A stretch of 64,000 bases of DNA, taken from an uncultured Chloroflexia bacterium (GTDB lineage Bacteria; Chloroflexota; Limnocylindria; Limnocylindrales; CSP1-4). A program made the translations under genes and the position numbers. The notes beneath the pieces were generated by a model. It did no database searches. It was not told where the DNA came from and was given only the letters and a program-made list of their open reading frames with translations. This document shows, piece by piece, positions 13,036-61,929 of this stretch. Positions within the stretch are counted from its first letter, which is position 1; each line of letters starts with the position of its first letter. The stretch is from positions 138,447-202,446 of the forward strand of contig CAVPWX010000013.1 of the NCBI GenBank assembly GCA_963709605.1. The letters are read 5' to 3'.

Positions 13036-13044
13036 GATCGCGGC

Positions 13045-15888: not shown

Positions 15889-15909
15889 GCGGATGGAGCC
15901 GCGCGGCGG

Positions 15910-27894: not shown

Positions 27895-28008
27895 GAGCGG
27901 ATTGTGCGCAGTCGTGATCGGACTGTCAATCGGATTGGCAGGGACTGAGTGTCTGGCGTAGACTCTCAACGCTCGATGTGACCTTCTCGTGACTGGAGGC
28001 GATCGAAC

Positions 28009-39112: not shown

Positions 39113-39122
39113 CACGGCCCCC

Positions 39123-40686: not shown

Positions 40687-41286
40687 TCAGGCGGACGCCA
40701 CCGCCCCGCCCTCGATGAGGGCCATCGCCCTCTCCACCACCAGGGGCACGGCCGCCGCCACGGGAGCGGTCATCGCACCGCCGACGGTCGTGCAGTCGCC
40801 GGCCTCGACGGCGAGGATGTCGACGTCCGACGGCACCTCGAGGCCGAGGCCGCGGGCCAGCTCGAGCGTCTCGAAGAGGCCGATGTAGTGGGGCGAGCCG
40901 CCGGGAGCGCCGACGAGGTCTCCCTCCTTCAGCTCGAGCACGGTGCCGGGGTCCACGGAGCCGGTCACGATCGTGTCGACCACGATGAGCCGGGAAGCCC
41001 CCAGCACCGCCTCGAGCAGGTACATGCCGGTGAGCGCGGTCTCCAGCACCTCGACGGTCCCGGCCCGCGGATGCTCGAAGGCCGTCACGGTCATCGCCGA
41101 GTCGGGCGATGGCCCGGACGGCGCCGGCGTGCCGGCGACGGCGAGGCGCCGGCACAGCCCGCGGGCCGCGAGAATGCCCATGGCGTCGTCCGCGATGAGC
41201 TCGTTGCCGAGACCGAGCACCCGGACGGGCCCGGCAGCAGCGCCGCCGGGCCGGACCCGCCCGTCAGTCGCGGTGGAGACTGCCAT
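40687..41286 (-). CDS. [NiFe]-hydrogenase maturation endopeptidase (HycI/HoxW/FrhD family)
   Basis: VRVLGLGNELIADDAMG and ...VVDT....PG are typical of hydrogenase maturation proteases. It overlaps the 3' end of the large-subunit gene. Confidence 0.8.
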   Translation of the reverse strand: MAVSTATDGRVRPGGAAAGPVRVLGLGNELIADDAMGILAARGLCRRLAVAGTPAPSGPSPDSAMTVTAFEHPRAGTVEVLETALTGMYLLEAVLGASRLIVVDTIVTGSVDPGTVLELKEGDLVGAPGGSPHYIGLFETLELARGLGLEVPSDVDILAVEAGDCTTVGGAMTAPVAAAVPLVVERAMALIEGGAVASA

Positions 41287-42818
41287 CGGCGTCGCGGCGC
41301 AGCTGCGACATCTCCCGGCCGTCGGACCCGCGCACCGTCAGCACCAGCGGCATGCTCCCCGGGAGGGAGTGGGTGGCGCAGGCGTGGCAGGGGTCGTAGG
41401 CGCGGAAGGCCATCTCCACCTTGTTGAGGATGCCCTCCGACACGATCCCCTTCGAGATCAGCCCCTTGGCCGCCTTCTCCACGCTCATCGCCATGCGCGC
41501 GGAGTTGTTCTGGGTGGCCACGATCAGGTTGGCCTTCTCGATGATCCCGCGCGAGTCGGTGACGTAGTGGTGGAACAGCGTTCCCCGCGGCGCCTCCACC
41601 ACCCCGACGCCCTCGCGCGGCGTCGCGGTGGGGAGGGTGCGCACGTTGGGGTCGATGAGCTCCGGGTCGTCGGCCAGCTCCTTGAGCCGCTCCGTGGCGT
41701 AGAGCAGCTCCACCACCCTGGCCCAGTGGTTGGCCAGGGTGTGGTGCACGGGCTTGCCGCCCAGGGTCGCGTACAGCTCCTCGTAGGCTTCCTGGGCCAG
41801 GGGGGTCGCCATCCCGTCGGCAGCGTTGAGCCGGGCCAGGGGAGCCACCGAGTAGATGCCGCTCTCCGCGCCGTCGGTGAAGCCGTGCCAGCCCAGCGGC
41901 TTCAGGTAGCAGAACTTGACGTAGGACCAGGGCTCGACGTGCTCGGCCACGAAGTCGAGGTAGTCGGCCGCCGGGAAGGTCGCGTACTCCGCTCCCTCGG
42001 GGCTGACGACGCGGATCCGCCCGTCGTAGAAGTTGGGCCGGTTCCGCTCGTCCATGAGCCCCATGTAGTAGGTCCGGTGGGTGAAGGCGTCGGAGACGAT
42101 GAGGTCGACGTACGCCGGGTTCGCCAGCACCACCGAGCGGAAGGTGTCGAGGGTGAAGCGGGCGAACTCCACGGCGTCGTTGGCCGTCTCCCTGTATCTG
42201 CGCCTGCTGCTCCGCGGTGACCCGCTTCGCCACGCCGCCGGGGAGGCCGAGGACGGGATGGATGACCTTCCCGCCCGTGAGGGTGATGATCTCCCGGATG
42301 CGGCGGCGCATGGTGATGACCCGCAGCCCGACCTCCTGGCCCACCGTGGCGATGACGCCCAGGATGTTGCGCTGGGCCGCCGGCGCCTCGGGGCCCACCA
42401 CGAAGTCGGGGCCGCCGAGGAAGTAGAAGTGGAGGGCGTGGTCCTCGGCCATGAACGCCGAGTAGACCAGCTCCCGGATCTTCTTGGCCGCCGGCGGCGG
42501 GTCGACCTTGTAGAGGGCGTCGAGCGCCTTGGTGCCGGCCATGTGGTGCGCCGTGGGGCAGACGCCGCAGATGCGCGAGGTGATCTGCGGCATGTCCTCG
42601 GCCGGGCGGCCCTCGGCGAACTTCTCGAAGCCGCGCAGCTCCGGGACCTGGAAGTAGGCCCGATCCACGTCCCCCGCGTCGTCGAGGAAGATGTCGATCT
42701 TGCCGTGCCCCTCGAGGCGGGTGATGGGATCGATGGTGATGCGGCGGCGGGCGTAGGCGGCCTGGGCCCCCTGCGAGCCCCGGCTCCACGCCTCCTGGGC
42801 GGCCATCTCGTCGGACAT
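41264..42818 (-). pseudogene. [NiFe]-hydrogenase large subunit, group 3 (MvhA-like), frame-shifted at about 42190
   Basis: The N-terminal half (ITRLEGHGKI..., L1 motif RICGVCPTAHH) is in the 41091..42818 frame. The C-terminal half (...EAPRGTLFHHY..., L2 motif DPCHACATH plus a cleavable tail) is in the 41264..43780 frame. The junction reads AEQQAQIQ/ETANDAVEF at CAGGGAG. Total length is 3n+1. Confidence 0.8.
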
Positions 42819-42831
42819 GTGTCGGGGCTCC

Positions 42832-43812
42832 TCAGGCGTCGACGGGAGTCATCTTGCGCCGGCGCAGCAGCGAGCCTGCCAGGCCGTAGCGGTAGAAGGT
42901 GCCGATGGGGTCGGGGATGCTGTCGAGGGCCGTCTCGATGGCCTCGTCGTCGAGCGCCGTGAGCATCGAGCCGAGGGCCGACAGGTACTTGCCGCCCTGG
43001 TCGTGCACCTTGCTGGTGGGCCCGAAGCAGCCGGTGCAGGGCATGTTGCCCCTGATGCACTGCTGGCCGCACCCGGCCCGGGTGGCCGGCCCCATGCACA
43101 GCAGCCCCTGGGCCAGCAGGCAGGTGTCCTCGTCGATGAGGATCTCGTGGGGGCGGTAGAAGCGCTCCAGGCTGAGGTCCTGCGGCTTGGTGTCGAGGCG
43201 GGGGCACTCCTCGCAGAGGGCGATGTCCGGCGTCAGCACCGTCCCCGCAGGGGGCAGGTCGCCGCTCAGCAGGGTCGCGACCGCCCCGGCGATCACGTTC
43301 GGCGTGGGCGCGCAGCCCGGGATGTAGTAGTCGACCGAGGTGACCTGGTCGAGGGCCCGGACCGTGTCGTAGAAGCCGGGCAGGGTGACAAAGGTGCCGT
43401 TGTGGGGCGTGGCCTCGAGGGGGATCACCCCGTCGGGGTTGACGGTGGACGGGGACGTCAAGTACGCGGTCGCAAAGATGGCTTCCCGGTCCCACAGGTT
43501 GGCCAGGGCGGGGATCCCGCCCAGGTGGGCGCAGGAGCCGAAGGCAACCAGCACCTTCGCCTTGCGCCGCAGCAGGTGGGCCATCTCCTCCTGCTCGGTG
43601 GTGCGGATGGCCCCGTTCACGAAGGCGGCCAGGATGGACCCATCCTCCATGGCCTCGACGTCGGCCTTCTTGAAGTCGAGGGCCACCGGCCAGAACACGA
43701 TGTCCACGGCGGCCACCACGTCGAGGATCTTCTCGGCGAGGTCGACCACCGCCTCTTCGCAGCCCCCGCAGGAGGAGCACCAGTAGAAGGCGACCTTGGG
43801 CTTGTCGCTCAT
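42832..43812 (-). CDS. [NiFe]-hydrogenase small subunit, group 3 (MvhG-like)
   Basis: KVAFYWCSSCGGCEE (proximal cluster), GSCAHLGGIP, and C-terminal Cys clusters (CEECP, CMGPATRAGCG..C...CTGC). ATGA overlap with mvhD. Confidence 0.85.
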   Translation of the reverse strand: MSDKPKVAFYWCSSCGGCEEAVVDLAEKILDVVAAVDIVFWPVALDFKKADVEAMEDGSILAAFVNGAIRTTEQEEMAHLLRRKAKVLVAFGSCAHLGGIPALANLWDREAIFATAYLTSPSTVNPDGVIPLEATPHNGTFVTLPGFYDTVRALDQVTSVDYYIPGCAPTPNVIAGAVATLLSGDLPPAGTVLTPDIALCEECPRLDTKPQDLSLERFYRPHEILIDEDTCLLAQGLLCMGPATRAGCGQQCIRGNMPCTGCFGPTSKVHDQGGKYLSALGSMLTALDDEAIETALDSIPDPIGTFYRYGLAGSLLRRRKMTPVDA

Positions 43813-44324
43813 GCCGTCACCTCCGCCAGCTCGGCGTCCGCGGGGATCTCCTCGGGGAGCTCCACGCTGAAGCCCTCCGGCGGCACCTCGAGGTGCAATG
43901 GCCCCAGCGCCGTCAGGCGGGCCACCATGTCGTTCATCACGTCGCGCAGCTTGTCGGCCTCGGCGGCGGAGATCCACTCCAGGCGGATGCGCTCCTCCTC
44001 GATCCCCATGCCCACCAGGACCCGCTGCAGCAGCCGGAAGCGGCGCAGCGCCTTGTGGTTGCCGGACTGGTAGTGGCAGTCGCCGAAGTGGCAGCCGCCG
44101 ACGAGGACCCCGTCGGCGCCGTTGGCGAACGCCTCCATGACGAACTGGGGATCCACCCGTCCGGAGCACATGACCCGGATGACCCGCGCGTTCGGCGCGT
44201 ACTTCATGCGGGAGGTGCCGGCCAGGTCGGCCGCCAGGTAGGTGCACCAGTTGCAGAAGAAGGCGACGATCTTCGGCTCCCAGCCGTCGGCGCTCTCCTG
44301 CGGCTTCGCGGTCGGCTCAGGCAT
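43809..44324 (-). CDS. mvhD: methyl-viologen-reducing hydrogenase delta subunit (MvhD) family protein
   Basis: IVAFFCNWCTY...VMCSGRVDP...GADGVLVGGCHFGDCHY is the MvhD [2Fe-2S] pattern. Confidence 0.85.
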   Translation of the reverse strand: MPEPTAKPQESADGWEPKIVAFFCNWCTYLAADLAGTSRMKYAPNARVIRVMCSGRVDPQFVMEAFANGADGVLVGGCHFGDCHYQSGNHKALRRFRLLQRVLVGMGIEEERIRLEWISAAEADKLRDVMNDMVARLTALGPLHLEVPPEGFSVELPEEIPADAELAEVTA

Positions 44325-46308
44325 GGGCCAGCACCCCCAGGATCTCCTCGTAGATCTCTTCGTCTTCGAACAGGTTCTGCCGGATGGACCCGGACGGGCA
44401 GGCGGCCACGCAGGTGCCGCAGCCCTTGCAGAGCACCGGGTTGATCTGGGCCTTGCCGTCCACCCGCGTGATGGCGGTGTACGGGCAGAGCGGGATGCAG
44501 GTCTTGCAGCCCGAGCACTCCTCGGCCACCACGTAGGCGGTGTTCGGCTCCATCTCGACGTAGCCCTTGTCGATCAGGGCCAGGGCCTCGGCGGCGGCGG
44601 CCCCGGCCTGGGCCACGGTGTCCGGGATGTCCTTGGGGCCCTGGCAGGCGCCGGCGAGGTAGATGCCGTCGGTGAACGTGCTCACCGGGGCCAGCTTCGG
44701 GTGGCGCTCCATGAAGAAGCCACCCCCGGCGCAGGTGATGTTGAAGATGCGGCGCACGTCCTCGGCGTCGGCCTGGGGCTCCAGGCCGGTGGCCAGGACC
44801 ACCATGTCCACCGGGATCTTGCGCACCCGGCCGAGCAGCGTGTCCTCGGCCTGGAGGACCACCCGCCCGGTGTTGCCGGCCTCCGGGTACACGTCGGCCA
44901 CCTTGCCCCGGATGAAGTGGACCCCCTCCTCGGCGACCCGGTTGTAGAACTCCTCCATGCCCTTCCCGGCGGCCCGGATGTCGATGTAGAAGTTGTAGAT
45001 CTCCGCCCCGGTCTTCTCCTTGACCAGGTGGGCCAGCTTGAGGGAGTACATGCAGCAGACGCGGGAACAGTGCTCGTTGGTGTTGACGTCCCGGCTGCCG
45101 ATGCAGTGGAGAATCCCCACTGTCTCCGGCGTGCGCCCGTCGCGAAGGGTGACGTGCCCCTCGGTGGGCCCCGAAGAGTTCACCAGCCGCTCCAGCTCCA
45201 TGCTCGTGTACACGTTCGGGTAGACCCCGTAGCCGTACGACGGGGTCCGCTTGGGGTCGAAGGTCTTGAAGCCCGTGGCGAGGATCACTGCGCCGACGTC
45301 GACCGTGTCGATGGTTTCGGTCTGCGTGAAGTCGATGGCGTTGCGGTCGGCGCAGGCCTCGACGCAGGTCTTCTTGCAGCGTCCGGACTTGAACTCGATG
45401 CAGGCCTCCTGGTCGATGACCACCAGCTGGGGCACCGCCTGGGGGAAGGGGATGTAGACCGGCTTGCGCATGTTCAGGCCGAGGTTGAACACGTCGGGGG
45501 TCTTGCCCACCTTGTAGACGCAGGCCTCGATGCACTCCAGGCAGCCGACGCAGGCGTCCTCGACGATGAAGCGGGGCTTGTGACGGACCGTCGCCGTGTA
45601 GTTGCCGACGTAGCCATCGACCCTGTCGACCTCGGCCATGGTCCACAGGGTGATGTTGGGATTGGATCGCACCTCCGTCATCTTCGGGGTGAGGATGCAG
45701 GCGGCGCAGTCGAGGGTGGGGAAGGTCTTGTCGAACTGGGCCATGTGCCCGCCGATGGACGGCTCCCGCTCCACGAGGTAGACGTGCTTGCCCGCGTTGG
45801 CCATGGTCAGCGCGGCGTGGATGCCGGCGATACCGCCGCCCACCACCATGACCGCCGGGTTGACCGGGACCCGCGACCGCTCCAGCGGCTTGTGGAACCG
45901 GACCCGGTGGACCGCCGCGCGGATGAGGTCGTTGGCCTTGGCGGTCGCCTCGGCGCGATCCGTGTGCACCCAGGAGTCCTGTTCCCGGATGTTCACCATC
46001 TGGAAGTAGTAGGGGTTGATGCCACCCTCGGCGGTGGCGCGACGGAAGGTTGCCTCGTGCAGGCTGGGAGAGCAGGAGGCGACGACGACCCGCTCCAGGC
46101 CGCTGGCCTGGATGTCCTCCTTGATCAGCTCCTGGCCGGGGTCGGAGCACATGTACTTGTAGGCCCGGGCCACCGTCACCCCCGGGAGGCCTGCGGCATA
46201 GTCCCGCACCGCCTCGACGTCGACCGTCGCGGCGATGTTGGTGCCGCAGTGACAGACGTAGACCCCGATCTTCGGCTGGCCGTTGCCGCTCCTGTCGGCC
46301 GGGTTCAT
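44317..46308 (-). CDS. hdrA: heterodisulfide reductase subunit A-like FAD/FeS protein
   Basis: N-terminal Cys domain (VCHCGTNI...), FAD fold (VVGGGIAGIHAA), an inserted and a C-terminal ferredoxin domain (CSGCKTCIPLCP, CKGCGTCVAACP). 663 aa. Confidence 0.85.
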   Translation of the reverse strand: MNPADRSGNGQPKIGVYVCHCGTNIAATVDVEAVRDYAAGLPGVTVARAYKYMCSDPGQELIKEDIQASGLERVVVASCSPSLHEATFRRATAEGGINPYYFQMVNIREQDSWVHTDRAEATAKANDLIRAAVHRVRFHKPLERSRVPVNPAVMVVGGGIAGIHAALTMANAGKHVYLVEREPSIGGHMAQFDKTFPTLDCAACILTPKMTEVRSNPNITLWTMAEVDRVDGYVGNYTATVRHKPRFIVEDACVGCLECIEACVYKVGKTPDVFNLGLNMRKPVYIPFPQAVPQLVVIDQEACIEFKSGRCKKTCVEACADRNAIDFTQTETIDTVDVGAVILATGFKTFDPKRTPSYGYGVYPNVYTSMELERLVNSSGPTEGHVTLRDGRTPETVGILHCIGSRDVNTNEHCSRVCCMYSLKLAHLVKEKTGAEIYNFYIDIRAAGKGMEEFYNRVAEEGVHFIRGKVADVYPEAGNTGRVVLQAEDTLLGRVRKIPVDMVVLATGLEPQADAEDVRRIFNITCAGGGFFMERHPKLAPVSTFTDGIYLAGACQGPKDIPDTVAQAGAAAAEALALIDKGYVEMEPNTAYVVAEECSGCKTCIPLCPYTAITRVDGKAQINPVLCKGCGTCVAACPSGSIRQNLFEDEEIYEEILGVLAHA

Positions 46309-48254
46309 GTGTCGCTCCTCTGCGTCGCACCCACGGCGTCCCGCGTCACGCCGACGGCGTCCCGCGTCGCACCCATGGCGTCTTCCACCAGCTCAGCGAT
46401 GTCTCGCACCTCGAGCGTCCCTTCCAGCCCCGTCGTCTTCAGGGCGTCGCGGAACATGACCAGATCCTTGGGGCAGGCCACCACCATGGTGCCGACCCCC
46501 TGGAGACCCGCGGCCTCGCGCACGCGACTCTCCGCGGGGCGTTCGCCGGCCCCTGCGGCGTCCTCCATCCAGATCCGCCCGCCCCCGGCACCGCAGCAAT
46601 ACGCGGCCGACCGGTTGCGGGGCATCTCGACCAGGTCCAGGCCCAACCCCTCCAGCACGTGGCGCGGGGCGTCGTACACGCCGCCGTAGCGGCCGAGGTA
46701 GCAGGGGTCGTGGTAGGTGACCCTGCCGTTGCCGTTGGGGGAGACGGGCAGGCGGCCCGCGACGCCCAGGCCCTCGAGGACCTCGGTGTAGTGCTTCACC
46801 CTGCCGTCCAGCCCGTACTCGTGCTTGAGGACGTGGTAGGTGTGGGGATCGGTCGTGACGATGGCCTGGAACTGCCCGGTCTCGAGCGCCGCCAGGTTCT
46901 TGTCCCGCAGCATCTCGAAAAGGCCTTCCTCGCCGAGGCGCCGGACGTCGTTGCCGGCGTTCTGCTCCGCCTCGTAGAGGATCCCGAAGTCGAGCCCGGC
47001 CTCGCGGAAGACCCGCGCCGTCGCCCGGGTGACCTCCTGGACGCGCGGGTCGAACGACGCGTAGTCGCCGACGTACCAGAGGTACTCCACGGGCTCCTTG
47101 CGGGCGTCCTTGACCTCGAAGTCGAGCTCCCGCGTCCACTTCGGCCGGTTGCGGGGCGACTGGCCGAACGAGTTCCCGTAGCGGGTCATGCCCATGAGCA
47201 TGTCCTGGACGCCGGTCCCGACCTCCCCCTGGCCGATCAGGTGCCGGCGCATCTGCACGATGAGCGGAACGTGCTCGTTGAAGACCGGGCAGCGCTCCAT
47301 GCAGGCCATGCACGTGGTGCAAGCCCACACGGCCTCGGCGCCGACGGCATCGACGAGGCTCCCGTTGCCGTCGCGGCCGGAGGCCCGGCCCAGGACCAGG
47401 AGCTTCACGTCGTGGATGAGGTCCTGGGGCGAGAGGATCCCGCCGGCGGCGAACGCGGGGCAGGCCCGATCGCAGCGGCCGCACTCGGCGCACGAGAGGC
47501 CGTTGAAGAGCTCCCGCCAGGTGAACTCCTCCAGGCGCGCGGCACCCTCCGACGGCGGCGGCATCGCGCCGGGCTCCAGGGACGCGGTGAGGACGTTGAA
47601 CGGCGACGCCAGCAGGTGGAGGTGCTTGGAGTACGGCAGGTAGGCCAGGAAGCCCAGCACCGCCACCATGTGGATCCACCACATCGCCGTGTAGAGCGAT
47701 TCGGCCGCCGCCGCCGAGAGGCCGCCGAGCCCCTCCTTCGCCGCCTGGCCGACCAGGAAGGTCACCACGAGGAGGGTGATGAGGAGGAGGATGAGCCCGG
47801 CATCCCGCGACTGGGCCAGGCGCGGCGGAACGAGCACGTAGCGGCGGAGCGCCGCTCCCGCCAACGCCGCCAGGGTGGCCACGCTGAGGAGCACCATGGG
47901 GATGGTGAACAGGAGCACGTCGTCGGGGTACGGGATGGGGAGGAACGGGAGCAGGCCCCGCAGGAGGCTCCAGGCGAAGCTGACGGCGTAGAAGATGAAC
48001 GCCCAGAAGATGACGAGGTGGGCCAGCCCGACCCCGGGGTTGTCGAACATCCGGCGCTGGGCGGCCACGTTGACGACGACGCTCCAGAGGCGGCTCGGCA
48101 GCCGGTCCCAGCGCGCTTCCGGCTTCCCGTGGGCCACCGCCCGCAGGATCCGGTAGGCCCGCTGCCCGAACAGGACGAAGACGACCGCCGTCAGCGCCCA
48201 CAGGATGGCGACACCCGGGACGCCGAGGAGCGTCTGCGCGGTCGGGTCCGGCAT
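46305..48254 (-). CDS. membrane-anchored (Fe-S)/CCG-domain oxidoreductase, EtfD/DUF224-like (HdrE-HdrD-type fusion)
   Basis: About 5-6 N-terminal TM helices, then 2x[4Fe-4S] (CAECGRCDRACP, CTTCMACMERCP) and two CCG regions (..DPHTYH.., YCCGAGGG). ATGA overlap with hdrA and 5 nt from etfA. Confidence 0.8.
   Translation of the reverse strand: MPDPTAQTLLGVPGVAILWALTAVVFVLFGQRAYRILRAVAHGKPEARWDRLPSRLWSVVVNVAAQRRMFDNPGVGLAHLVIFWAFIFYAVSFAWSLLRGLLPFLPIPYPDDVLLFTIPMVLLSVATLAALAGAALRRYVLVPPRLAQSRDAGLILLLITLLVVTFLVGQAAKEGLGGLSAAAAESLYTAMWWIHMVAVLGFLAYLPYSKHLHLLASPFNVLTASLEPGAMPPPSEGAARLEEFTWRELFNGLSCAECGRCDRACPAFAAGGILSPQDLIHDVKLLVLGRASGRDGNGSLVDAVGAEAVWACTTCMACMERCPVFNEHVPLIVQMRRHLIGQGEVGTGVQDMLMGMTRYGNSFGQSPRNRPKWTRELDFEVKDARKEPVEYLWYVGDYASFDPRVQEVTRATARVFREAGLDFGILYEAEQNAGNDVRRLGEEGLFEMLRDKNLAALETGQFQAIVTTDPHTYHVLKHEYGLDGRVKHYTEVLEGLGVAGRLPVSPNGNGRVTYHDPCYLGRYGGVYDAPRHVLEGLGLDLVEMPRNRSAAYCCGAGGGRIWMEDAAGAGERPAESRVREAAGLQGVGTMVVACPKDLVMFRDALKTTGLEGTLEVRDIAELVEDAMGATRDAVGVTRDAVGATQRSDT
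46317..46379 (-). repeat. 21-bp imperfect tandem repeat x3 in the 3' end of the EtfD-like gene
   Basis: Units at 46359-46379, 46338-46358 and 46317-46337 encode AMGATRD / AVGVTRD / AVGATQR. Confidence 0.7.
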
Positions 48255-48259
48255 CGGCG

Positions 48260-49237
48260 CTACCCCTTCCGCTTCCTGATGGCCTCGGCCAGCGCCTCGA
48301 GGACGTCGGTGGCGTCATCGACGATCCCGTAGTGGGCGATCGAGAAGATCGGGGCATCGGCGTCCATGTTGACGGCGATGATCAGCTCGGAGTCCTTCAT
48401 GCCCTCGACGTGCTCGGGGGCCCCGCTGACCCCGGCGGCCACGTACAGGCGCGGCTTGACGGTCACCCCGGACTTGCCGACCTGGCGGACGAGGGGGAGC
48501 CAGCCCTGGTCGATGACGGGGCGCGACCCGCACACGGCCCCGCCCAGCGCATCGGCCAGGTCCTCGGCGACCTCCAGGTTGGCCTCGCTGCTGATGCCCC
48601 GGCCGACCGAGACCAGCGCGTCCTGCTGGGTGATGTCCACGTCGCCCGCCTCGGGCTCCTCGTAGGCGACGAGGCGCACGCCGGAATCGTCGGCAAGGTC
48701 CACGGCCACGTCCTCGACGTGAGGCTCCGGGGCGCCGGGGGCCGGCGCGGTGCCCGTCCCGGGGAGGACGGCCAGCACCATGGGCCCGGGCCCGGCGTCG
48801 ACCGTCACGGCCATCTTGCCGCCGTAGAGCAGGCTCCCGACACGCAGCGCCCCGTCGACCACCTCGACCTCCCGGCAGAAGTTGACGAGGGGCACGCCCA
48901 GGCGCGCCGGCAGCAGGCCGAGCAGGTCCCAGCTGAGGTTGGTGGTCGGGAGGAGGATCACCGCGGGAGCACGCTCCGAGGCAAGCGCAGCCACCGCCCG
49001 GCTGGCCTGCAGCCCGGTGGCGTCGGCGAGCGTGGGATCGTCGACGTAGAGGACGGCGTCGGCCGGGCCCAGCGACGCGGCAAGCCCGCGCATCCCGTGG
49101 CCGAGCAGGACCGCCTCGAGGCGCACCCCCAGGGAATCGGCCAGGCCCCGCCCCACGGCCAGCAGCTCGCGGGTGGCGTCGGAGATGGTCCCTTTCCAGT
49201 GCTCCGCCACGATCCAGACGTTGCCAGCCATCGCCAT
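48260..49237 (-). CDS. etfA: electron transfer flavoprotein alpha subunit
   Basis: C-terminal FAD-binding motifs (VSVGRGI..., RPVIDQGW...QVG.SG..V.P.LYVA.G.SGA..H..G). Confidence 0.9.
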   Translation of the reverse strand: MAMAGNVWIVAEHWKGTISDATRELLAVGRGLADSLGVRLEAVLLGHGMRGLAASLGPADAVLYVDDPTLADATGLQASRAVAALASERAPAVILLPTTNLSWDLLGLLPARLGVPLVNFCREVEVVDGALRVGSLLYGGKMAVTVDAGPGPMVLAVLPGTGTAPAPGAPEPHVEDVAVDLADDSGVRLVAYEEPEAGDVDITQQDALVSVGRGISSEANLEVAEDLADALGGAVCGSRPVIDQGWLPLVRQVGKSGVTVKPRLYVAAGVSGAPEHVEGMKDSELIIAVNMDADAPIFSIAHYGIVDDATDVLEALAEAIRKRKG

Positions 49238-49241
49238 CTCC

Positions 49242-50021
49242 TCAGATCAGCCCGCGGGCGGCCAGGATGTCGGCCAGGCGCTCCGCCACGTCGCGCACCG
49301 ATCCCTCCAGCATCTCGGCGTGCCCGGCCGCCTCGGGCTTGGCCATGGCCGTCACGGCGAGCGGAGTCACTGCCGGCCCGCTGGCTGCGGGAACCGCCTC
49401 GATGCCACCCGCGGCCATGGCCGCTCGCACCTTGGCGATCGGCACGTAGCGCGGCGGCTTCTCGCAGCCCTGGACGCCGAGGAAGGCGGGAAGGGTGACC
49501 TCGAAGCGCCCCATGACGCCCCCGGCGTACTCCTTGGCCACCACGGCCTTGCCGGCCGCGGGATCGACCTGGATGCGGCTCACGAGGCCCAGGTACGGGA
49601 GGCCGATGGCCCCGGCGAGGAGCGGTCCCACGAAGCCGTCGAGATCGTCGATCGCCTGGCACCCGCTGAGCACGAGGTCTGCGGGGAGCACGCCGGCGAT
49701 GCCGGGCAGGGTGGCGGCCAGCGCGGCAGCCTTGGCGCGAGTGCCCGCGATCACGTCGATGCCCGACACGCGGATCGCCCGGTCGGCGCCCTTGGCGAGC
49801 GCGGTATGGAGGACGTCGTCGATCTCGGGGGCCTCCAGGGCCGCCACGGTCACCGTCGCCCCCAGGCGGTCCTTGAGGAGCAGCGCCTGCTCCAGGGCAT
49901 AGTCGTCGCGCTCGTTGACGATGAAGCGGAGGTACTCCGGGTCGAGCGACGAGCCGTCGCCGGCGACCTCGAGCTCCTCCACGATGTCGGGCACCATCTT
50001 CATCAGGACCAGGATCTTCAT
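49242..50021 (-). CDS. etfB: electron transfer flavoprotein beta subunit
   Basis: MKILVLMKMVPD...NERDDYALEQAL... is the canonical EtfB N-terminus. Confidence 0.9.
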   Translation of the reverse strand: MKILVLMKMVPDIVEELEVAGDGSSLDPEYLRFIVNERDDYALEQALLLKDRLGATVTVAALEAPEIDDVLHTALAKGADRAIRVSGIDVIAGTRAKAAALAATLPGIAGVLPADLVLSGCQAIDDLDGFVGPLLAGAIGLPYLGLVSRIQVDPAAGKAVVAKEYAGGVMGRFEVTLPAFLGVQGCEKPPRYVPIAKVRAAMAAGGIEAVPAASGPAVTPLAVTAMAKPEAAGHAEMLEGSVRDVAERLADILAARGLI

Positions 50022-50069
50022 CGCGCCAGCCCGTCCTCCTCGCTCGATCCTGCCGCCGGTCGCGCCTGC

Positions 50070-51270
50070 TCAGCCATCGAGCGCCTCGGCGACCAGCTCC
50101 ATGACGTCCCGGACCACCATCCGATCGTCGTACCCGAGCACCTTGAGGGAGTCCTCGAAGCGCGGCACCTCGTAGGGACACGACACCGCGAGCACGTCGG
50201 CGCCGGTGGCCGCCGCCTCTTCGACCCGGCGGTCGGAGAGGCGGCCGTGCCCCTTCTCCTTGTAGAAGGTGTCGAGCCACATCCCGCCCCCGCCCCCGCC
50301 GCAGCAGATCGTGTTGTCCCGGTTGTGGGCCATCTCCACGATGCTCACGCCGGGGATGGCCTCGAGGATTCGCCGCGGCTCGTCGTGCATGTGGTTGTGC
50401 CGGCCGAGGACGCACGAGTCGTGGTACGTGACCTTGTAGCCGAGCTCCCGGGTGAGGCGCGGCCGGAGAGCGTCGAGCCGGGCCGCCACGAACGGCGTCG
50501 TGTGTTGAACCGGCTGCTGAAGGCCCAGCGTCGGGTAGAGGAAGGCGAAGGCGTCGAAGGCGTGGGGATCCGACGTGAGCAGGGAGGCGAACTCGTACTT
50601 CCCGAAGGTCGCCATGTTCTGCTCGCGCAGGGTGTCGAACAGGCCCTTCTCCCCGACCAGCCGGGCGCACTCCCCGGCGCACTTCTCCTCGGTCCCCAGG
50701 ATCGCGAAGTCGACCCCGAGCGCGGCGAGGACCCGGGCCGTCGCCCGCGCGTTGTCCTGGCCTCGCGGGTAGTACGCCGCGTAGCACTCGACGATCCAGA
50801 GGACGTCCACCGGCCGCCCCAGGTCGCGCAGGATCGGGCACCGGCACCGCGGCGCTGTCCGCCCACGCCGCGCGCTTGCGCGGCGATTCCCCCATCGGGT
50901 TGCCGTAGCGCATCGTGTTGGCGAGCGCGCCCTGCAGCTCGGACGGCACCTGGGGGAGCCGCAGAAGCACCTGCTCCTTCACGACCGGCAGGAGGATGTC
51001 GGTCAGGTGGAGCCCGCGGGGGCATTTGTCCCAGCAGTCGTAGCAGGTGACGCAGCTGAGGAGATCGTCGCCGGCGAGCACCTCCTCGATGAAGCCCTCC
51101 CGCAGCATGCCGATGAGGCGGCGCGGCGTGTAGCGCATCACGTCGCCGTGGGGGCAGGTGCCGGCGCAGGTGCCGCACTGGATGCAGCTCAGCAGCGCGC
51201 GGCCCTCCGGCGTGGCGAGCAGCCCATCGAGCGTGATGTCGGGGGTCCCCGGCACGGTCGCCGTCGCCAT
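50070..51270 (-). pseudogene. soluble HdrD/GlpC-like (Fe-S)/CCG-domain oxidoreductase, frame-shifted at about 50836
   Basis: N-terminus with CIQCGTCAGTCP and CVTCYDCWDKCP (48958..51270 frame). The C-terminal part has two CCG regions (EEKCAGEC..., ICCGGGGGG) in the 50070..50810 frame. The junction reads AAVPVP/ILRDLGRPVDVLWIVECY. Total length is 3n+1. Confidence 0.75.
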
Positions 51271-51273
51271 CGG

Positions 51274-51504
51274 TCACTCCCTCTCGTGGTGGTCCCGGCC
51301 CCGATGCCGCCGCCGCGGCGGGCTCGGGGCTCGCCTGCCCTGCCGGGCCGCACCCGGCCGCCGTGAACCCGTGGCCATCTCCGCTGCCGGGGCGGCGAAC
51401 GGCTCGTGAAGTGCCCGGGCTGTCGAGCGCGCGGCCGTCACCCCCTGAACGTGTGCGGGCCGACACCGGGTGTTCTCGAGCTGGACGACGAACTGGTGCG
51501 CCAC
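51274..51504 (-). pseudogene. degenerate paralog of the ACT-domain gene at 57012..57425 (N-terminal remnant)
   Basis: VAHQFVVQLEN... matches MARQFVVQLEN.... 25 nt are identical (51472-51496 versus 57393-57417). Similarity then decays with indels. The upstream leader is also duplicated. Confidence 0.35.
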
Positions 51505-51799
51505 GCCGCGTACCTCTACCGGCGGGGGCGCCGAGATCGGGCCTCGGTACCGCCACCAGGGTCTGCGGACGAGTCTTCCCCGCGCGACACGACGGGGGCC
51601 AGTGCCGTTGGGACCGGGCGGCGCGGGCCGAACGCCGCGCACTGCCGGGGCCGATGGCCCGCGGCGGGGGCGCAGCCGACCGGACAAGCCGGCGAGCGAC
51701 TGGCTGGTCACCAACGCGCTGCTCCTGTGCTACCGAGATGCATCACGACCCGGCGCCCGGAACCGGCCGGCGGCGGATCGCCCCGGGCGTGTCAACCCG

Positions 51800-52711
51800 C
51801 TATGCGCCCCCGGGCGCGGACGCCGCAGCCGGCACGCAGGGCCGCTTGACGACGGCCTCGGCCGAGACGAGCTCCTTGCCGATCCCCAGCCGTTTCACTC
51901 CGACTCCGAGGGCGAGGCCGAGCAGCTGGGTGAAGTAGAGGATGGGCATCGTGTAGTTGGTCCCGTAGGCGCGGTTCACCTCGCCCTGGTAGCACTCCAG
52001 GTTGGTCTGGCACAGCGGACACGCCGTGGCGATCACCTCGGCGCCGGCGTCAACCGCGCTCTGGAGGAGGTCACGCAGCATCTGCACCGCCGCGCGCCGG
52101 TTGGTCACCATGAGGGCCGCGCCGCAGCAGCGCAGCTTGTACGGGTAGGCCACCGGGACCGCCCCGGCTGCCTCGAGCAGCGCCTCGAAGTAGGTCGGGC
52201 TTTCGACCTGGGCAAGCTCCACGCCGGGGCGCCGGGGCCTCACGATCTGGCAGCCGTAGTACGGGGCCACTCGGAGCCCCTTGATGCGCTCGCCGGCCTT
52301 CTGGCGCACCAGCTCCAGCGCCTCCTCGGTCACGAAGGCGTGCATGATGTGGCTCACCTCGACCCTGCCGTCGTAGCGCAGGTCATCGGCCTCGAGGGCG
52401 TAGTTCATGTGCTCCGCGAGGTCGGCGTCCCGCTTCAGGGCGGCGTTCGTGGTCCACAGGTTCTTGTAGCAGGCGTTGCATGGCGCCACGATGTCGAGGC
52501 CCTGCTTCTCGGCGATGGCGAGGTTGCGGGCGCACAGGACCGTGGCCAGCAGCTCGTCGACCTTCGAGTAGGCGGTCGCCCCGCAGCAGTTCCAGTCCTC
52601 GAGCTCCTCCAGCTCGACGCCGAGCTTGTGCGCCACCTCCATCGACGACACGTGGTAGGTGGCGGCCATGGTCTCCAGCGAGCAACCGGGGTAGTAGGCG
52701 TAGCGGGTCAT
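51800..52711 (-). CDS. hdrB: heterodisulfide reductase subunit B-like (two CCG domains)
   Basis: YYPGCSL...WNCCGA... and ...YYGCQ...LRCCGA.... ATGA overlap with hdrC. Confidence 0.85.
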   Translation of the reverse strand: MTRYAYYPGCSLETMAATYHVSSMEVAHKLGVELEELEDWNCCGATAYSKVDELLATVLCARNLAIAEKQGLDIVAPCNACYKNLWTTNAALKRDADLAEHMNYALEADDLRYDGRVEVSHIMHAFVTEEALELVRQKAGERIKGLRVAPYYGCQIVRPRRPGVELAQVESPTYFEALLEAAGAVPVAYPYKLRCCGAALMVTNRRAAVQMLRDLLQSAVDAGAEVIATACPLCQTNLECYQGEVNRAYGTNYTMPILYFTQLLGLALGVGVKRLGIGKELVSAEAVVKRPCVPAAASAPGGA

Positions 52712-53286
52712 TTGATACCGTCCAGGGGGAGGACGCGGGCCACCATGGCCCGCAGGTTGCGGATCCGCTTGATCCGGGAGGGGAGGAGGGGCAGGCGGCC
52801 CTTGCCGAGGAGGCGTACCGCCATGCGCATCTCGCGAACCACCCCGGGGAAGCCGCCCTCGAAGATGAAGGCCGGGGCGTAGCCGGGCTCGTAGGACTTG
52901 CCCGTCCGCATGATGGTCCGGGTGAAGCGCCGCGAGAACTCCGGCGCGACCCAGTCCCGGTTGAAGGTGTCCTTCCACAGCGAGTAGCGCGTGAGGGCGT
53001 ACATCACGTCGGCGGGCCGGATACCCTCCGGGCACTTCTCGGAGCACGCATAGCACGAGGCGCACGTCCAGAAGGTGTTGGACGCCATGACCTCGTCCTT
53101 CATCCCGGCATTGATGAGGGCGATGAGCTCGCGAGGCGTGTGGTCCATGAACTCCACGGCCGGACACGCCGCCGAGCACGTGGCGCACTGGATGCAGCGA
53201 ACGAGGGAGACTCCCTCCTCGGCGTGAAGGAGGTTCTCGACCTCCTCCCGGAAGGAGATCCTCCTCGCCGGTGTCGCGATCGCCAT
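52708..53286 (-). CDS. hdrC: heterodisulfide reductase subunit C-like (2x[4Fe-4S])
   Basis: CIQCATCSAACP and CASCYACSEKCP. Confidence 0.85.
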   Translation of the reverse strand: MAIATPARRISFREEVENLLHAEEGVSLVRCIQCATCSAACPAVEFMDHTPRELIALINAGMKDEVMASNTFWTCASCYACSEKCPEGIRPADVMYALTRYSLWKDTFNRDWVAPEFSRRFTRTIMRTGKSYEPGYAPAFIFEGGFPGVVREMRMAVRLLGKGRLPLLPSRIKRIRNLRAMVARVLPLDGIK

Positions 53287-53294
53287 GGGATCCC

Positions 53295-53708
53295 CTACCT
53301 GCTCTTGCGGGCTTCGCTGGCGGCGATGAGGGCCGCGGCCTTCTGGAGCAGCAGCTCCGGCTCGACCGGCTTCTCCACCAGCTCATCGACGGGCACGAAG
53401 CCCGGGTGCACGGCCTGGCCGGGGAAGAGGAACGCGATCTGCTCCCGCAGGCCGGTGATGATGAGGACGGGCATCTCCCGGAGCACGTTGTCCTTGCGGA
53501 TCTTCCGGGCCATCATCACGCCCTCGGCACCGCGCCCCATCATGATGTCGAGGCACAGCAGGTCGTAGTGGTCCTTCTGCAGGGCATCCCAGCCATCCTC
53601 GGGGTTGTGCACCACCGCGGTGTCGTACTGGGTGTCGAGGATGGCCCTGATCCCCGCAGCGAAGTCGGGGTCGTCATCGACGATGAGCACCCTCTTGCGC
53701 TCGCTCAT
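53295..53708 (-). CDS. stand-alone response-regulator receiver protein (CheY-like)
   Basis: VLIVDDDPDF...LLCLDIMM...LIITG....KP. Its stop lies 8 nt before the hdrC start. Confidence 0.85.
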   Translation of the reverse strand: MSERKRVLIVDDDPDFAAGIRAILDTQYDTAVVHNPEDGWDALQKDHYDLLCLDIMMGRGAEGVMMARKIRKDNVLREMPVLIITGLREQIAFLFPGQAVHPGFVPVDELVEKPVEPELLLQKAAALIAASEARKSR

Positions 53709-54860
53709 CCCTTCTCTCCTTCCAATACCTGCTCCGGAGGCGCTCCCTCCGTTCCCGGAACCGGCGTCCCGTGCGCCGGCAACGCGATGACGAAGACACT
53801 GCCCCGACCCGGGTCGCTGGTCGCGGTGATCGACCCGCCGTGGGCCTCGACGATGCGCCGCGTGAGGGCCAGGCCGATGCCGGCGCCGGCGACGCCGCTC
53901 TCCCCGGCCTGCCCGCGATAGAACGCGTCGAAGATCCGCGGCAGGTCCGCCGCGGGTATCCCGACTCCCGTGTCGGTCACCGAGATCACGACCTTCCCGT
54001 CCCGAGACACCGCCGACACGACCACCGTGCCGCCTTCTCTCGAGTACTTGACCGCGTTGCCGACCACGTTGAGCACCGCCTCGGTCAGCGCACCCTCGTC
54101 CCCCAGCACCGTCGCCGCGGGGTCCACCTCGGCCACGACCTCGACGGCCTTGCGCACCGCCTCAGTCCGGGCGCTCTCGAGGGCATTCGCCACCGGCGCG
54201 GAGATCGCGACCGGGCGGAAGCCATCCCGAAGGGGGGCGACATCGACCGTGAAGCCGCGCAGCCAGCGATTCACCAGGGCGAGCAGGTCCCCGATGCGAC
54301 TGCTCATCCGCTCCAGCCGCCGTTGCTGGTCCTCCGAGACGACCCCCTCGAGCTCCGTGATCGTCACGAAGAGGTTCTGCTGGACGGCGGCCAGGGGCGA
54401 GCGCAGCTCATGGGACACGATGGCGGCGAAGTTCTCCCGGAGCGCCTCCCGCTCCCGACGCAGCGCCACCCTCTCCACCACCAGGGCCCGCTGCTCGAGG
54501 CCCCGCCGGATCATCGTGCGGAACTCGTCGGGGGTGAAGGGCTTGGGCGAGGAAGTCGAAGGCGCCGTGCTGCATCGCCTCGACCGCCGACGCGATCGTG
54601 GCGAACCCGGTGAACACGATGCACACGACCGTCGGGTCCAGCGACCGGATCTCCTCGAGCACCTGCATCCCGGACATGCCCGGCATCTTGAGGTCGACGA
54701 AGACGAGGTCGGGCGCCCAGGCGCGGGCCGTGTCGAGGCCCTCCGCGCCGCTCGACGCGAGCGCGACCTCGTGCTCGCTGCCCTCGAGGATCGCGAGGCA
54801 GGAATCGAGCACGACCTCTTCGTCGTCGATCAGCAGGATGCGCCGTCGCTGCTCGGTCAC
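53705..54860 (-). pseudogene. hybrid receiver-histidine kinase (REC-HisKA-HATPase), frame-shifted at about 54545
   Basis: The REC domain (ILLIDDEEV...VFVDLKMPGMSG...FDFLA) is in the 54408..56891 frame. KPFTPDEFRTMIRRGLEQ...SHELRSPL...G.G.GL continues in the 53705..54514 frame. Total length is 3n+1. The GTG start overlaps the upstream TGA. Confidence 0.75.
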
Positions 54861-56891
54861 TGGCCGTCCCCCCGGGACGCCAGCACGGGCAGCTCGATCG
54901 TGAACGCCGTCCCCGCGCCGTCCTCGCTCTCGACGACGATCGTGCCGCCGTGCTCCTTGACGATCCCGAAGCTGATGGCCAGGCCCAGGCCGGTGCCGTG
55001 CCCGACCTCCTTGGTGGTGAAGAAGGGATCGAAGATCCTCCCCAGGTTCTCCTCGCTGATGCCGTGCCCGGTGTCCCGGAAGACGGCCTGGACGACCCTC
55101 TCGCTCGGCGTCGAGCCGGGTGGTCACCGTGAGCCGCCCCACGCCGTCCATGGCCTCGGCGGCGTTGATGATCAGGTTCATGAAGACCTGCTGCATCTGC
55201 GCCGGGTCCACCACCGTCGGGGGCAGGTCCTCCTCGTAGTCGCGAACCACCTCGATGTTGTGGAAGAGCACCCGGTCCTCCACCAGGGACAGGCACTCGT
55301 CGATCGTGATGCGCAGGTCCGTCAGCTGCTTGTGCGGCTTCTTGGGCCGGGAGAAGTCGAGGAGGCCCCGGATGATGGTCACGCAGCGCGTCGCCTGGTT
55401 GGCGATCTTCTCCACCGAGGGCCTGCGGGAGTCGTCGGGCGTCATCTTCTCGAGCAGGAGGTGCGAGTAGGTCACGATCCCCTGGAGCGGGTTGTTCAGC
55501 TCGTGAGCCACGTCGGCGGCGAGCTGGCCGACCACGGCCAGGCGCTCCGACTCCATGACCTTCCTCCGGGCGAACTCCTTGAGCTGGTCGTCACGCGCCT
55601 GGAGCGAGGCCGCCATGCTGTTGAACGAGCTGGCCAGCTCCCCGATCTCGTCGTTCGAGGTCACGGTCACCTTCGCCTGCAGGTCGCCCGCGGCCACCCT
55701 GCGGGAGGCCTCGACGAGCGCGCGGACCGGCCTGGAGAGGCGGCGGGAGAAGACATAGGAGAACGCGATCGCGGCAACCACGGCGATCAGCGTGACGGCC
55801 AGGAACAACAGGCTCGTGCTGACCCTGAGATCGACGTAGGGCTTCTCGAGCGTGCCCACGTACAGCATCCCCACCACCCTGCCGTCGAGGTCCCGGAGGG
55901 GATCGTAGGCAGCGATGTACCAGTCGTTGACGACGTACGCCCGGCCCACCCAGCGCTCCCCGCCGACGACGACCCTGTCGTAGACCTCCTCCGACACGCG
56001 GGTGCCGATGGCCCTGGTGCCGTCCTCGTTGAGGACGTTGGTGGCGATCCGCACGTCGTCGAGGAAGATCGTGGAGGTGCCGATGTCCCGGCCCTCGTAC
56101 TGGGCACCTTCGAAGACGGTCTCCTTGATCCCGTCCACGATCCCGTAGCGCCGGGTGACGAGCTGGCCGCCGTACAGGGCGCCGATGACGTTGCCGGCTT
56201 CGTCGACCACCGGGGCTGCGGCCAGGAGGACCAGGCCGTCGGTCTCGACCGTGTCGTCCCGCGGTCGCGCCCCCTGCGTCTCCACCAGCTCGAGCCTGGC
56301 GATCTCGGGCAGGCCGGGGGACTCCCGGCCCAGCATGTCCGCCGTGAACACCGCCGTGGCGGCCACCGGGGTCGCCTCGCCCAGGGCGGCGGCCACGACG
56401 CTCATCCCCGCCTGGGAGTCTCCGACGACACCGGGGTTCGCAGCTCGCAGGAGGACGGCGCCGGCTGCGTCGGTCACGGTCAGGAAGTCGAGCTGCTCGG
56501 AGACCATCATGTCGGTCAGCTCGCCCGCGGTCACGCTGACGTCGCCGCCGAGCAAGGCGTCGCGGAGGTAGAAGCGATCGGCCTGGAACCTGACCAGGTC
56601 GTAGAGATCGTCCGCGTAGGTGTCGTAGATCGCCCCGGCCGAGTTGAGATCGGAGGACACCCGGTTCTGTGCCTCCGCCACCACTCGCTCGCCGATGAAG
56701 AAGACCGCCACCCCGGCGAAGGTCGCGCTGAGCAGGATGATGATGGCCAGGAAGGCGACCATCAGCTTGACGAAGCGGCTCGCCCCGCGACGACCCGGTG
56801 CTACCTGGGCGTCGTCCGCGACCCGCTCTTGGACGGAGCCGGGAATCGCCGGCTCCGAGCGGACGGCGAGGCTTGCGCCAGATTCCGACAA
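54857..56891 (-). pseudogene. membrane sensor histidine kinase (Cache-like periplasmic domain, HAMP, HisKA, HATPase), frame-shifted at about 55096
   Basis: TM, extracytoplasmic domain, TM, HAMP (RPVRALVEASRRVAAGDL...EIGELASSFNSM), then H-box VAHELNNPL. After ...LDAERE the ATPase continues in another frame ([42 protein letters not shown]...) to TGA at 54857. Total length is 3n+1. Confidence 0.75.
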
Positions 56892-57425: not shown

Positions 57426-57678
57426 CGCAGCCTGCCTCCACCGACCGGGGGACGCCGGCCGGGCACCTCGACCATCGCTCGGCTCCGCAGACGAGCGCAG
57501 AACATCGCAGGTGCCTCGGTGGAGAGGCGCCTGTGGGCGAATCGTTCCCTGCCGCAGGTACCGAAGGCCAGTGCCGAGGGGGCCGGGTGGCCCGGGCCGA
57601 ATGCCGGGCGCGGGCAGGGCCGATGGCCCGGGTCGGCGGACGGCTGCACCGTTCGCCCGCGCCGGGCCACAGCCCTCG

Positions 57679-61928: not shown

Positions 61929-61929
61929 T

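Follow-up and report, generated by a model that had tools for sequence, protein, structure and literature searches.

An uncultured Chloroflexia bacterium carries, on contig CAVPWX010000013.1, a cluster of 14 minus-strand genes that places a [NiFe]-hydrogenase, heterodisulfide reductase (Hdr) subunits, an electron transfer flavoprotein (ETF), and a membrane iron-sulfur (FeS) protein next to a phosphorelay. The cluster occupies positions 40687–56891 of the 64,000-nucleotide stretch that we analyzed (hereafter the window). Judging from its cofactor ligands, gene order, and conservation, we propose that the locus may encode one functionally coupled, reversible H2-dependent electron-bifurcating system made from two known modules, a proposal that we regard as evenly poised between right and wrong. 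An H2-linked bifurcating or confurcating machine reaching menaquinone had been suggested in a first-pass annotation made from the letters alone, and it remains the reading that appears to fit the locus best. Module 1 would comprise the [NiFe]-hydrogenase, MvhD, and a full-length HdrA, a core of the methanogen type, with HdrC-HdrB also present in this lineage. Module 2 would be a chain of a soluble HdrD-like protein (B3), EtfAB, and a membrane-bound ETF:menaquinone oxidoreductase (EMO), as in type II sHdr clusters.

Because raw lists of open reading frames (ORFs) are noisy at the base composition of the window (70–78% G+C; third-position G+C ~0.95), genes were modeled from codon-position composition with a small Viterbi frame model. 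Pfam and NCBIfam profile searches of the window proteins, with the kinases searched as frame-repaired proteins, found every gene that the first-pass annotation had named, at its expected place and in the same order (Table 1). From the first kinase gene (HK1) to the hydrogenase protease gene, successive junctions measure −4, −4, +8, −4, +529, +48, +4, +5, −4, −8, −4, +13, and −23 nt. Apart from the 529-nt hdrB/B3 gap and the 48-nt B3/etfB gap, neighboring genes are joined by overlaps of 4–23 nt or gaps of 4–13 nt; overlaps of 4 nt link the hybrid kinase gene (HK2) with both HK1 and the receiver (REC) gene, hdrC with hdrB, and emo with hdrA. These spacings are in agreement with the one or two operons suggested earlier. 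A sigma-70 promoter scan of the region from 40 to 58 kb returned no promoters, with terminator matches at chance level, and was uninformative.

The membrane protein of the cluster has thousands of homologues. Using the membrane-protein alignment, we fetched 80 genome loci, added two contigs, and scored the resulting 82 loci (labeled L001, etc.) by tblastn with all window proteins. The synteny check that had been proposed for this arrangement showed that the cluster recurs: an EMO gene and a hydrogenase large subunit gene lie within 10 kb of each other in 15 of the 82 loci, and three more loci are cut by a contig end at HdrA/MvhD. The hydrogenase-linked loci come from Chloroflexota, Acidobacteriota, Verrucomicrobiota, FCB group, Ignavibacteria, and Zixibacteria metagenome-assembled genomes (MAGs), under the record labels Chloroflexia, Anaerolineae, Terriglobia, Bryobacteraceae, Vicinamibacterales, Opitutaceae/Verrucomicrobia, FCB group, Ignavibacteria, and Zixibacteria. 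Their gene set is constant and its order is permuted. Anaerolineae loci read B3-EtfBA-EMO, followed by the kinases and REC and then by hdrCBA-mvhD-hydrogenase; B3 comes after EMO in some Verrucomicrobia and FCB-group loci.

Every hydrogenase-linked locus with a contig long enough to include the region carries B3. About half of the hydrogenase-linked loci (L001, L005, L006, L008, L010, L021, L048, and L054) lack hdrCB within 10 kb. Because B3 is always kept and hdrCB is often absent, B3, not HdrBC, is the steady companion of HdrA. All hydrogenase-linked EMOs fall into one clade of a neighbor-joining tree, which carries no support values. A misassembly was rejected, as the same junctions are found in L003 and L001 at 84–88% nucleotide identity. 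Conservation across loci and the single EMO clade thus indicate that the arrangement is neither a misassembly nor a curiosity of one lineage. In L002 (positions 2006–17970 of a 4.37-Mb MAG contig), a further set of hdrC, hdrB, and hdrA lies upstream together with a protease gene; the second hdrA is called as two genes and the large subunit is called at only 307 residues, so that this copy may be rearranged or degraded.

The frame-repaired large subunit contains both Ni-Fe motifs, RICGVCPTAHH and YDPCHACATH, the latter followed by a 34-residue tail, and its gene adjoins that of a HycI-type protease. Its best NCBIfam model is VhuA, with 395 bits compared with ≤167 bits for other hydrogenase models and an equivalog cut-off of 800. 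Against PDB chains, it scores 372 bits with 7T2R_D (NiFe-HydABCSL), 369 bits with 9SFI_g, and 363 bits with MvhA (5ODC_F); by type, Mvh/Vhu chains reach 357–369 bits, group 3d 313 bits, and groups 3a and 3b ~95–109 bits. The order hdrA-mvhD-small-large, with overlapping hdrA-mvhD-small junctions in the window, is also found in 15 related loci. Together with the conserved MvhD-HdrA adjacency, these scores support a probable placement in group 3c, as expected, a class set here by profile and structure scores and gene adjacency.

MvhADG-HdrABC is the flavin-based electron-bifurcating hydrogenase/heterodisulfide reductase of methanogens. The window encodes the same six families as MvhAGD-HdrABC (PDB entry 5ODC), with a full-length HdrA, adjacent MvhA, MvhG, and MvhD homologues, and an HdrB with ten Cys. 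Residues 10–658 of HdrA align with residues 10–651 of methanogen HdrA 8RVU at 723 bits, and methanogen HdrA structures match the window protein end to end at 698–723 bits; its scores with the NCBIfam HdrA models are all under the equivalog cut-offs. Given its Pyr_redox_2 and Fer4 domains (Pfam), HdrA is predicted to be of the full-length bifurcating type, binding FAD and FeS clusters, with inserted and C-terminal ferredoxin domains. We looked for two CX31-39CCX35-36CXXC motifs (ten Cys) in HdrB and two [4Fe-4S] motifs in HdrC, and both are present. The HdrB translation keeps the ten Cys of the catalytic type (C10, C42, C43, C77, C80, and a second complete set) and scores 198 bits with TIGR03288 (CoB_CoM_SS_B), under the cut-off of 345. 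The window differs from the methanogen complex in that B3, EtfB, EtfA, and EMO are inserted between hdrB and hdrA, and many relatives of the locus lack hdrCB and retain B3. Unlike in methanogens, the coenzymes M (CoM) and B (CoB) are not expected in the bacterial host.

The inserted block resembles the distal half of type II sHdr clusters, which are organized as shdrC1B1AHB3-etfAB-emo and in which B3, a fusion of HdrC2 and HdrB2, can bind only one non-cubane cluster (PMC11094781). The soluble HdrD-like protein of the window is 48% identical over its full length (E 1.6e-123) to the B3 gene product of Alicyclobacillus tolerans, whose cluster, among the fetched loci, reads sHdrC1-B1-A-hyp-B3-EtfBA-EMO. 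Its ligands comprise eight cubane Cys and one non-cubane site (C286/C322/C323/C364 with H236), suggesting that, as a fusion of HdrC and HdrB in which just one non-cubane site is complete, it corresponds to sHdrB3 of type II sHdr clusters. Three further Cys are conserved only in the closest hydrogenase-linked subclade and are missing from the Anaerolineae and Zixibacteria hydrogenase-linked loci.

The membrane CCG protein shows five long N-terminal helices in its AlphaFold model (pLDDT 82), a NarI-like heme b domain, and a QmoC-like match at residues 19–214 (NCBIfam). A Foldseek comparison of the model with Mycobacterium smegmatis EtfD (PDB entry 9OJN) gave E 1.4e-28 and a query-normalized TM-score of 0.81, and the sequence matches the same entry at 221 bits. 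The heme His residues H79, H195, and H213 are kept in nearly all of 74 homologues, H195 varying in a few non-hydrogenase loci, and the H195–H213 spacing of 18 residues equals that of H233–H251 in SaEMO. Among the homologues, the cubane Cys (C255/258/261/265 and C312/315/318/322) and the proximal non-cubane ligands (C518/553/554/594 with the His cap H471) are invariant. Both EMO and B3 retain the His cap, which renders the non-cubane cluster non-catalytic. The window protein thus shares with EMO/EtfD the three-domain architecture, the fold, the heme His spacing, the eight cubane Cys, and the His-capped proximal cluster. These features point to a member of the EMO/EtfD family with a predicted heme b domain of five transmembrane helices, two cubane clusters, and one non-cubane cluster. 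The function of EMO as an ETF:(methyl)menaquinone oxidoreductase is established in Syntrophus aciditrophicus and M. smegmatis.

In contrast to both solved EMOs, the window protein has no ligands for the distal cluster (FeS4/D1), and its gene lies between etfA and hdrA. The positions equivalent to HdrB C9, C41, C42, C78, and C81 are occupied by D397, N432, A433, D469, and T472, none of them Cys. Across the B3-associated EMO clade, the five distal ligands read D, N, A/S, D, and T/S, and the final Cys of the second CCG motif is replaced by Asp, whereas more distant EMOs retain the distal-cluster Cys. This Cys-less clade takes in cultured Alicyclobacillus, Amycolatopsis, and Mesorhizobium (homologues in L001–L040), and a soluble B3 gene stands beside EMO in 27 of its ~39 loci. 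At its 3′ end, the window EMO gene contains three tandem 21-nt repeats (46322–46384) that encode a repeated C-terminal peptide, (D/G)A(M/V)G(A/V)TR, in a region whose length differs among relatives.

Judged by its EtfB sequence, the window Etf is not of the canonical bifurcating (group 2) type. EtfB matches the Methylophilus ETF β subunit best among solved structures (102 bits, compared with 73 bits for the bifurcating A. fermentans EtfB), and Methylophilus ETF, its nearest solved relative, is AMP-binding. Where the three solved bifurcating Etfs that make up our comparison (4KPU, 6FAH, and 5OL2) share GRQAIDGDTAQVG (segment G-R-Q-A-I-D-G-D-T-A-Q-V-G), the window has GCQAIDDLDGFVGP; its DDLDG motif is common to all B3-associated EtfBs. 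Because EtfB lacks the segment of the bifurcating Etfs, an NADH-bifurcating Etf is not supported and was rejected. Like type II sHdr clusters, the window has the order B3-EtfB-EtfA-EMO, a one-site B3, and an EMO from the Cys-less clade; it differs in its 663-residue HdrA with ferredoxin domains, accompanied by MvhD and the hydrogenase, where sHdrA has ~350 residues.

The Cache kinase, hybrid kinase, and REC accompany the cluster in seven loci from four phyla, HK1 orthologues adjoining it in L003, L005, L012, L015, L018, L039, and L054. REC lies directly upstream of hdrC in L003, L012, L015, L018, and L039, with 61–93% identity to the window protein; between Chloroflexota classes and Zixibacteria, identity is 61–66% and the position upstream of hdrC is constant. 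The relay ends in this stand-alone receiver, and no DNA-binding output domain occurs in the relay proteins, which hints at post-translational control or an unlinked output. In our proposal, the relay would govern expression of the cluster, from two transcription units with a duplicated leader in this lineage.

The first of these units probably begins with the ACT-domain gene upstream of the kinases, an 87% identical orthologue of which lies at the same place in L003. The hdrB/B3 gap holds a copy of the 5′ end of this gene (tblastn, 26 residues, E 5e-5; blastn, 66 nt at 83%, E 1.5e-14) and of ~215 nt of its upstream leader (direct repeats D3 and D4 match 57348–57639). The description of the gap as an ACT-gene remnant was thus right as to the 5′ copy, but the gap is better described as a duplicated leader/promoter with a conserved element of ~65 nt. 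This element is found on the minus strand at 51598–51660 and 57567–57629 of the window and at 6649–6715 and 831–895 of L003. In a four-way alignment of the two window and two L003 copies, the ~65-nt block is almost invariant, in contrast to the decayed remains of the former coding part, and purifying selection acts on the gap element in both genomes. Its sequence reads …ATCGGCCC…TTCGGCCCG…CGGCACTGGC and contains three TCGGC(C/A)C direct repeats ~22–24 nt apart. Both the ACT gene start and the decayed ACT duplicate have the element ~130–190 nt upstream, and its pattern occurs twice in the window and never in shuffles; a search of L001 and more distant loci did not find it. We read the gap as a duplicated leader/promoter that would give the B3-to-protease unit the same regulatory input as the ACT-kinases-REC-hdrCB unit, and the 65-nt element may be an operator or promoter common to both. 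An RNA-structure reading of the element was unsupported, with compensatory change at 2 of 18 predicted pairs in the four sequences and no Rfam match there.

Literature searches found no characterized Mvh-Hdr-Etf-EMO complex (expression, purification, or activity), in agreement with the first-pass annotation, which knew of none that put both modules in one operon. The gene association itself, however, is on record, and B3-EtfAB-EMO is a known module. A genomic note in a 2021 Chloroflexi preprint reports group 3c hydrogenases preceded by HdrABC, and sometimes ETF, in Anaerolineae and Dehalococcoidia and proposes bifurcation (bioRxiv 10.1101/2021.08.23.457424). The association given there (group 3c with HdrA2B2C2D and EtfAB) involves the same genes, and L012, L015, L018, and L021 are of that type; compared with that note, the window has B3-Etf-EMO within the hdr genes. 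Our analysis widens the distribution by at least five further phyla and adds the survey of cofactor ligands, the single clade of hydrogenase-linked EMOs, and the conserved sensor relay, together with the recognition of the HdrD-like/Etf/EMO block as the type II sHdr module, an EMO clade without distal Cys, and the duplicated leader. The cluster should interest those who study hydrogen metabolism and electron bifurcation, but it is not categorically new.

In the coupled system that we propose, the Ni-Fe site would oxidize H2, and electrons would pass from the small subunit through MvhD to the FAD of HdrA, where they would bifurcate. The low-potential electron would travel through the HdrA ferredoxin domains to ferredoxin. 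The high-potential electron would go to B3, then to ETF's mobile FAD, on to EMO with its single non-cubane cluster and hemes, and finally to menaquinone, which would take the place of the methanogen CoM-S-S-CoB. HdrCB, where present, would form a second arm with a thiol/disulfide substrate. In the reverse mode, electrons from ETF or menaquinol would combine with those of reduced ferredoxin to yield H2. In type II sHdr, EtfAB and EMO are suggested to pass electrons from an HdrA-type flavoprotein to menaquinone (PMC11094781); most economically, B3-ETF-EMO would serve HdrA in the way proposed for sHdrA, as its putative high-potential exit. Since the distal cluster is lost in both EMO and B3, the ligand patterns suggest that the mobile ETF flavin shuttles between their single non-cubane clusters. 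By analogy with SaEMO, conservation of the distal-heme ligand further suggests that the quinone site lies at the outer face, so that the reaction would be coupled to the membrane potential. With literature potentials of ~−414 mV (H2), ~−140 mV (heterodisulfide), and ~−74 mV (menaquinone), the energetics would parallel those of the methanogen reaction.

More tentatively, the cluster could represent a distinct class of respiratory chain-coupled bifurcating hydrogenase, an MvhAGD-HdrA-B3-EtfAB-EMO supercomplex with menaquinone as acceptor and ETF as an internal swinging shuttle. If so, the abundant soil phyla Acidobacteriota, Chloroflexota, and Verrucomicrobiota would gain a sensor-controlled route between H2 and low-potential ferredoxin. 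Because the cluster occurs in phyla that dominate soils and peat, it would bear on H2 cycling and on the gain or disposal of low-potential electrons in facultative organisms. Group 3c hydrogenase-HdrA sets are common in non-methanogenic bacteria, and the cluster offers a testable substitute for CoM-S-S-CoB, namely the menaquinone pool. That the EMO clade and B3 lack the distal FeS cluster of the two solved EMOs poses a clear structural question.

Several observations weigh against a coupled system. ETF-EMO and Mvh-HdrABC are each complete known systems, and their co-localization may reflect co-regulation only; ETF-EMO alone is a known respiratory entry point for β-oxidation. In solved EMOs the distal cluster faces ETF, and since EMOs of this clade have none, ETF docking may differ or not take place. 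The large subunit is equally near the bifurcating NiFe-HydABCSL (7T2R_D, 372 bits) and the Mvh/Vhu chains (357–369 bits).

The same machine could also work physiologically toward H2 evolution, with electrons from ETF (acyl-CoA oxidation) or menaquinol and reduced ferredoxin confurcated at HdrA, which we regard as rather unlikely. Mvh-Hdr chemistry is reversible in principle, and in hypoxic soil microsites H2 evolution would serve as an outlet for reductant, as it does in syntrophic fatty acid oxidizers; the S. aciditrophicus EMO acts in fatty acid oxidation ending in H2/formate. The conserved distal-heme ligand H195 fits a transmembrane quinone site coupled to the proton motive force, and a cytochrome bd oxidase, an enzyme typical of microaerobic life, is encoded by the host. 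However, the direction of flow is not readable from sequence, and no acyl-CoA dehydrogenase or β-oxidation gene lies in or beside the cluster in the window and the loci inspected. Among the ~60 window genes scanned, with five stretches of the window unscanned, there were no β-oxidation, hyp maturation, or sulfur-transferase genes.

Alternatively, one regulon could serve two independent enzymes that exchange no electrons, an ETF:menaquinone oxidoreductase (B3, EtfAB, and EMO) and a disulfide-reducing Mvh-HdrABC. That each half is a complete known system speaks for this, as do the full catalytic ten-Cys pattern of the window HdrB and the kinase genes that separate the halves in Anaerolineae-type loci (L012, L015, L018, and L039). 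Yet hdrCB is missing within 10 kb in many of the hydrogenase-linked loci, and B3 is always directly beside HdrA or EMO; the emo-hdrA junction of the window is a 4-nt overlap, and the hydrogenase-linked EMOs are monophyletic. Moreover, in type II sHdr, B3 is counted among the subunits of the HdrA complex (PMC11094781). We therefore consider two separate enzymes unlikely.

The frameshifts raise the question of whether the array is decaying. As the first-pass annotation had noted, the large subunit, the HdrD-like gene, and both kinases each carry one; comparison with L003 (84–88% nucleotide identity to window 57098–40687) places them at ~42197 (large subunit), ~50836 (B3), ~54548 (HK2), and ~55099 (HK1), each as a 1-nt insertion. 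If these four and the ACT remnant were real lesions, the array would be non-functional, and both their number (four in 16.2 kb, more than expected from the three firmly confirmed in the other 47.8 kb; Poisson P = 0.02) and the gene fragment in the hdrB/B3 gap are consistent with decay. Nevertheless, orthologues in L001 and L003 are intact (the L001 large subunit has 517 residues), and removal of the inserted bases gives full-length proteins 77–92% identical to them. Third-position G+C is 0.93–0.99 on both sides of each shift, and the gap element is under the selection described above. Across the window, 8 of the 9 clear frameshifts are +1, a systematic pattern, whereas pseudogenes would show a mixed and deletion-biased one. 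Outside the locus, frameshifts affect a family 4 glycosyl hydrolase at ~31071, where the GH4 C-terminal domain spans the junction, and an Fe-ADH-like gene at ~22324 and ~22260, 64 nt apart, whose three-frame product is colinear with an intact paralogue (27982–29163). Further probable sites lie at 13593 (LysM protein), 25579 (sugar ABC permease), and ~34719 (possibly the 3′ end of the second cydDC-like ABC gene), and once they are counted, P becomes 0.09–0.15. The uniform insertions, undisturbed codon bias, and intact relatives point to sequence error, not to decay, which is very improbable. The shifts are thus probably errors and suggest a systematic sequence-quality problem.

Equally doubtful is a hydrogenase-equipped type II sHdr pathway oxidizing protein-bound sulfane sulfur: the B3-EtfAB-EMO module is common to type II sHdr clusters, but the window has no short sHdrA and no tblastn match to sHdrH, HdrB and HdrC are only 21–23% identical to sHdrB1 and sHdrC1, and the above scan of ~60 genes, with five stretches left out, found no LbpA, other lipoate-binding, or sulfur-transferase family.

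Table 1. Features of the hydrogenase-Hdr-Etf locus and of its surroundings, in window coordinates
Feature	Position	Strand	Evidence or remark
HK1 sensor histidine kinase	54857-56891	minus	Pfam sCache_3_3 4e-32, HAMP 2e-18, HisKA 5e-15, HATPase_c 4e-23
HK2 hybrid REC-HisKA-HATPase kinase	53705-54860	minus	Pfam Response_reg 4e-28, HisKA 4e-8, HATPase_c 4e-29
Stand-alone REC, no output domain	53295-53708	minus	Pfam Response_reg 5e-16
HdrC, two [4Fe-4S] ferredoxin-like	52708-53286	minus	Pfam Fer4_8/Fer4_17
HdrB, two complete CCG motifs	51800-52711	minus	Pfam CCG x2, 5e-25
hdrB/B3 gap, 529 nt	51271-51799	minus	Diverged duplicate of ACT gene start and leader
Soluble HdrD-like protein (sHdrB3-like, B3)	50070-51270	minus	Pfam Fer4_8 and CCG
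EtfB, small ETF subunit	49242-50021	minus	Pfam ETF
EtfA, large ETF subunit, FAD-binding	48260-49237	minus	Pfam ETF and ETF_alpha 4e-30; PDB matches
EMO/EtfD-type membrane CCG protein, 649 aa	46305-48254	minus	Pfam CCG and Fer4
HdrA, full length, 663 aa	44317-46308	minus	NCBIfam HdrA2 827 bits
MvhD, [2Fe-2S] adaptor	43809-44324	minus	Pfam FlpD 2e-53
[NiFe]-hydrogenase small subunit (MvhG/VhuG-like)	42832-43812	minus	Pfam Oxidored_q6; NCBIfam VhuG 204 bits
[NiFe]-hydrogenase large subunit (group 3c-like)	41264-42818	minus	Pfam NiFeSe_Hases; NCBIfam VhuA 395 bits
Hydrogenase maturation endopeptidase	40687-41286	minus	Pfam HycI 1e-10; TIGR00072 79 bits
ACT-domain gene and leader	57012-57639 (gene 57012-57425)	minus	Pfam ACT 3e-11
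cydA	39123-40523	minus	Cytochrome bd, 163 nt downstream of locus
cydB	38111-39166	minus	Cytochrome bd; followed by ABC transporter on same strand
TPP riboswitch	6521-6628	minus	Rfam RF00059, 71 bits
Thiamine pyrophosphokinase and ECF/CbiQ-type transporter operon	5789-2903	minus	Downstream of TPP riboswitch
1050-aa regulator: MerR-type HTH, three GAF, GGDEF diguanylate cyclase	9883-13035	plus	
Type I restriction enzyme HindI-like endonuclease subunit, C-terminal part only	61777-62415	plus	Pfam T1RH-like_C, positions 174-327 of 329

The cytochrome bd genes directly downstream had been suggested as a possible sink for the electrons of the cluster. They do lie on the same strand, but this neighborhood is not conserved in relatives: the neighboring cyd genes of L003 are 40–43% identical and on the opposite strand, and tblastn found no CydA or CydB matches in L001 or in any other fetched locus. 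As a conserved feature, a functional link to cytochrome bd was thus rejected. Elsewhere, the window encodes functions unrelated to the cluster. Besides the features in Table 1, these include amino acid and sugar ABC transporters, a DeoR regulator, aminotransferases, a ROK kinase, a cation-efflux protein, a thioesterase, and a tRNA. The isolated type I restriction ORF near the end of the window is probably a gene fragment.

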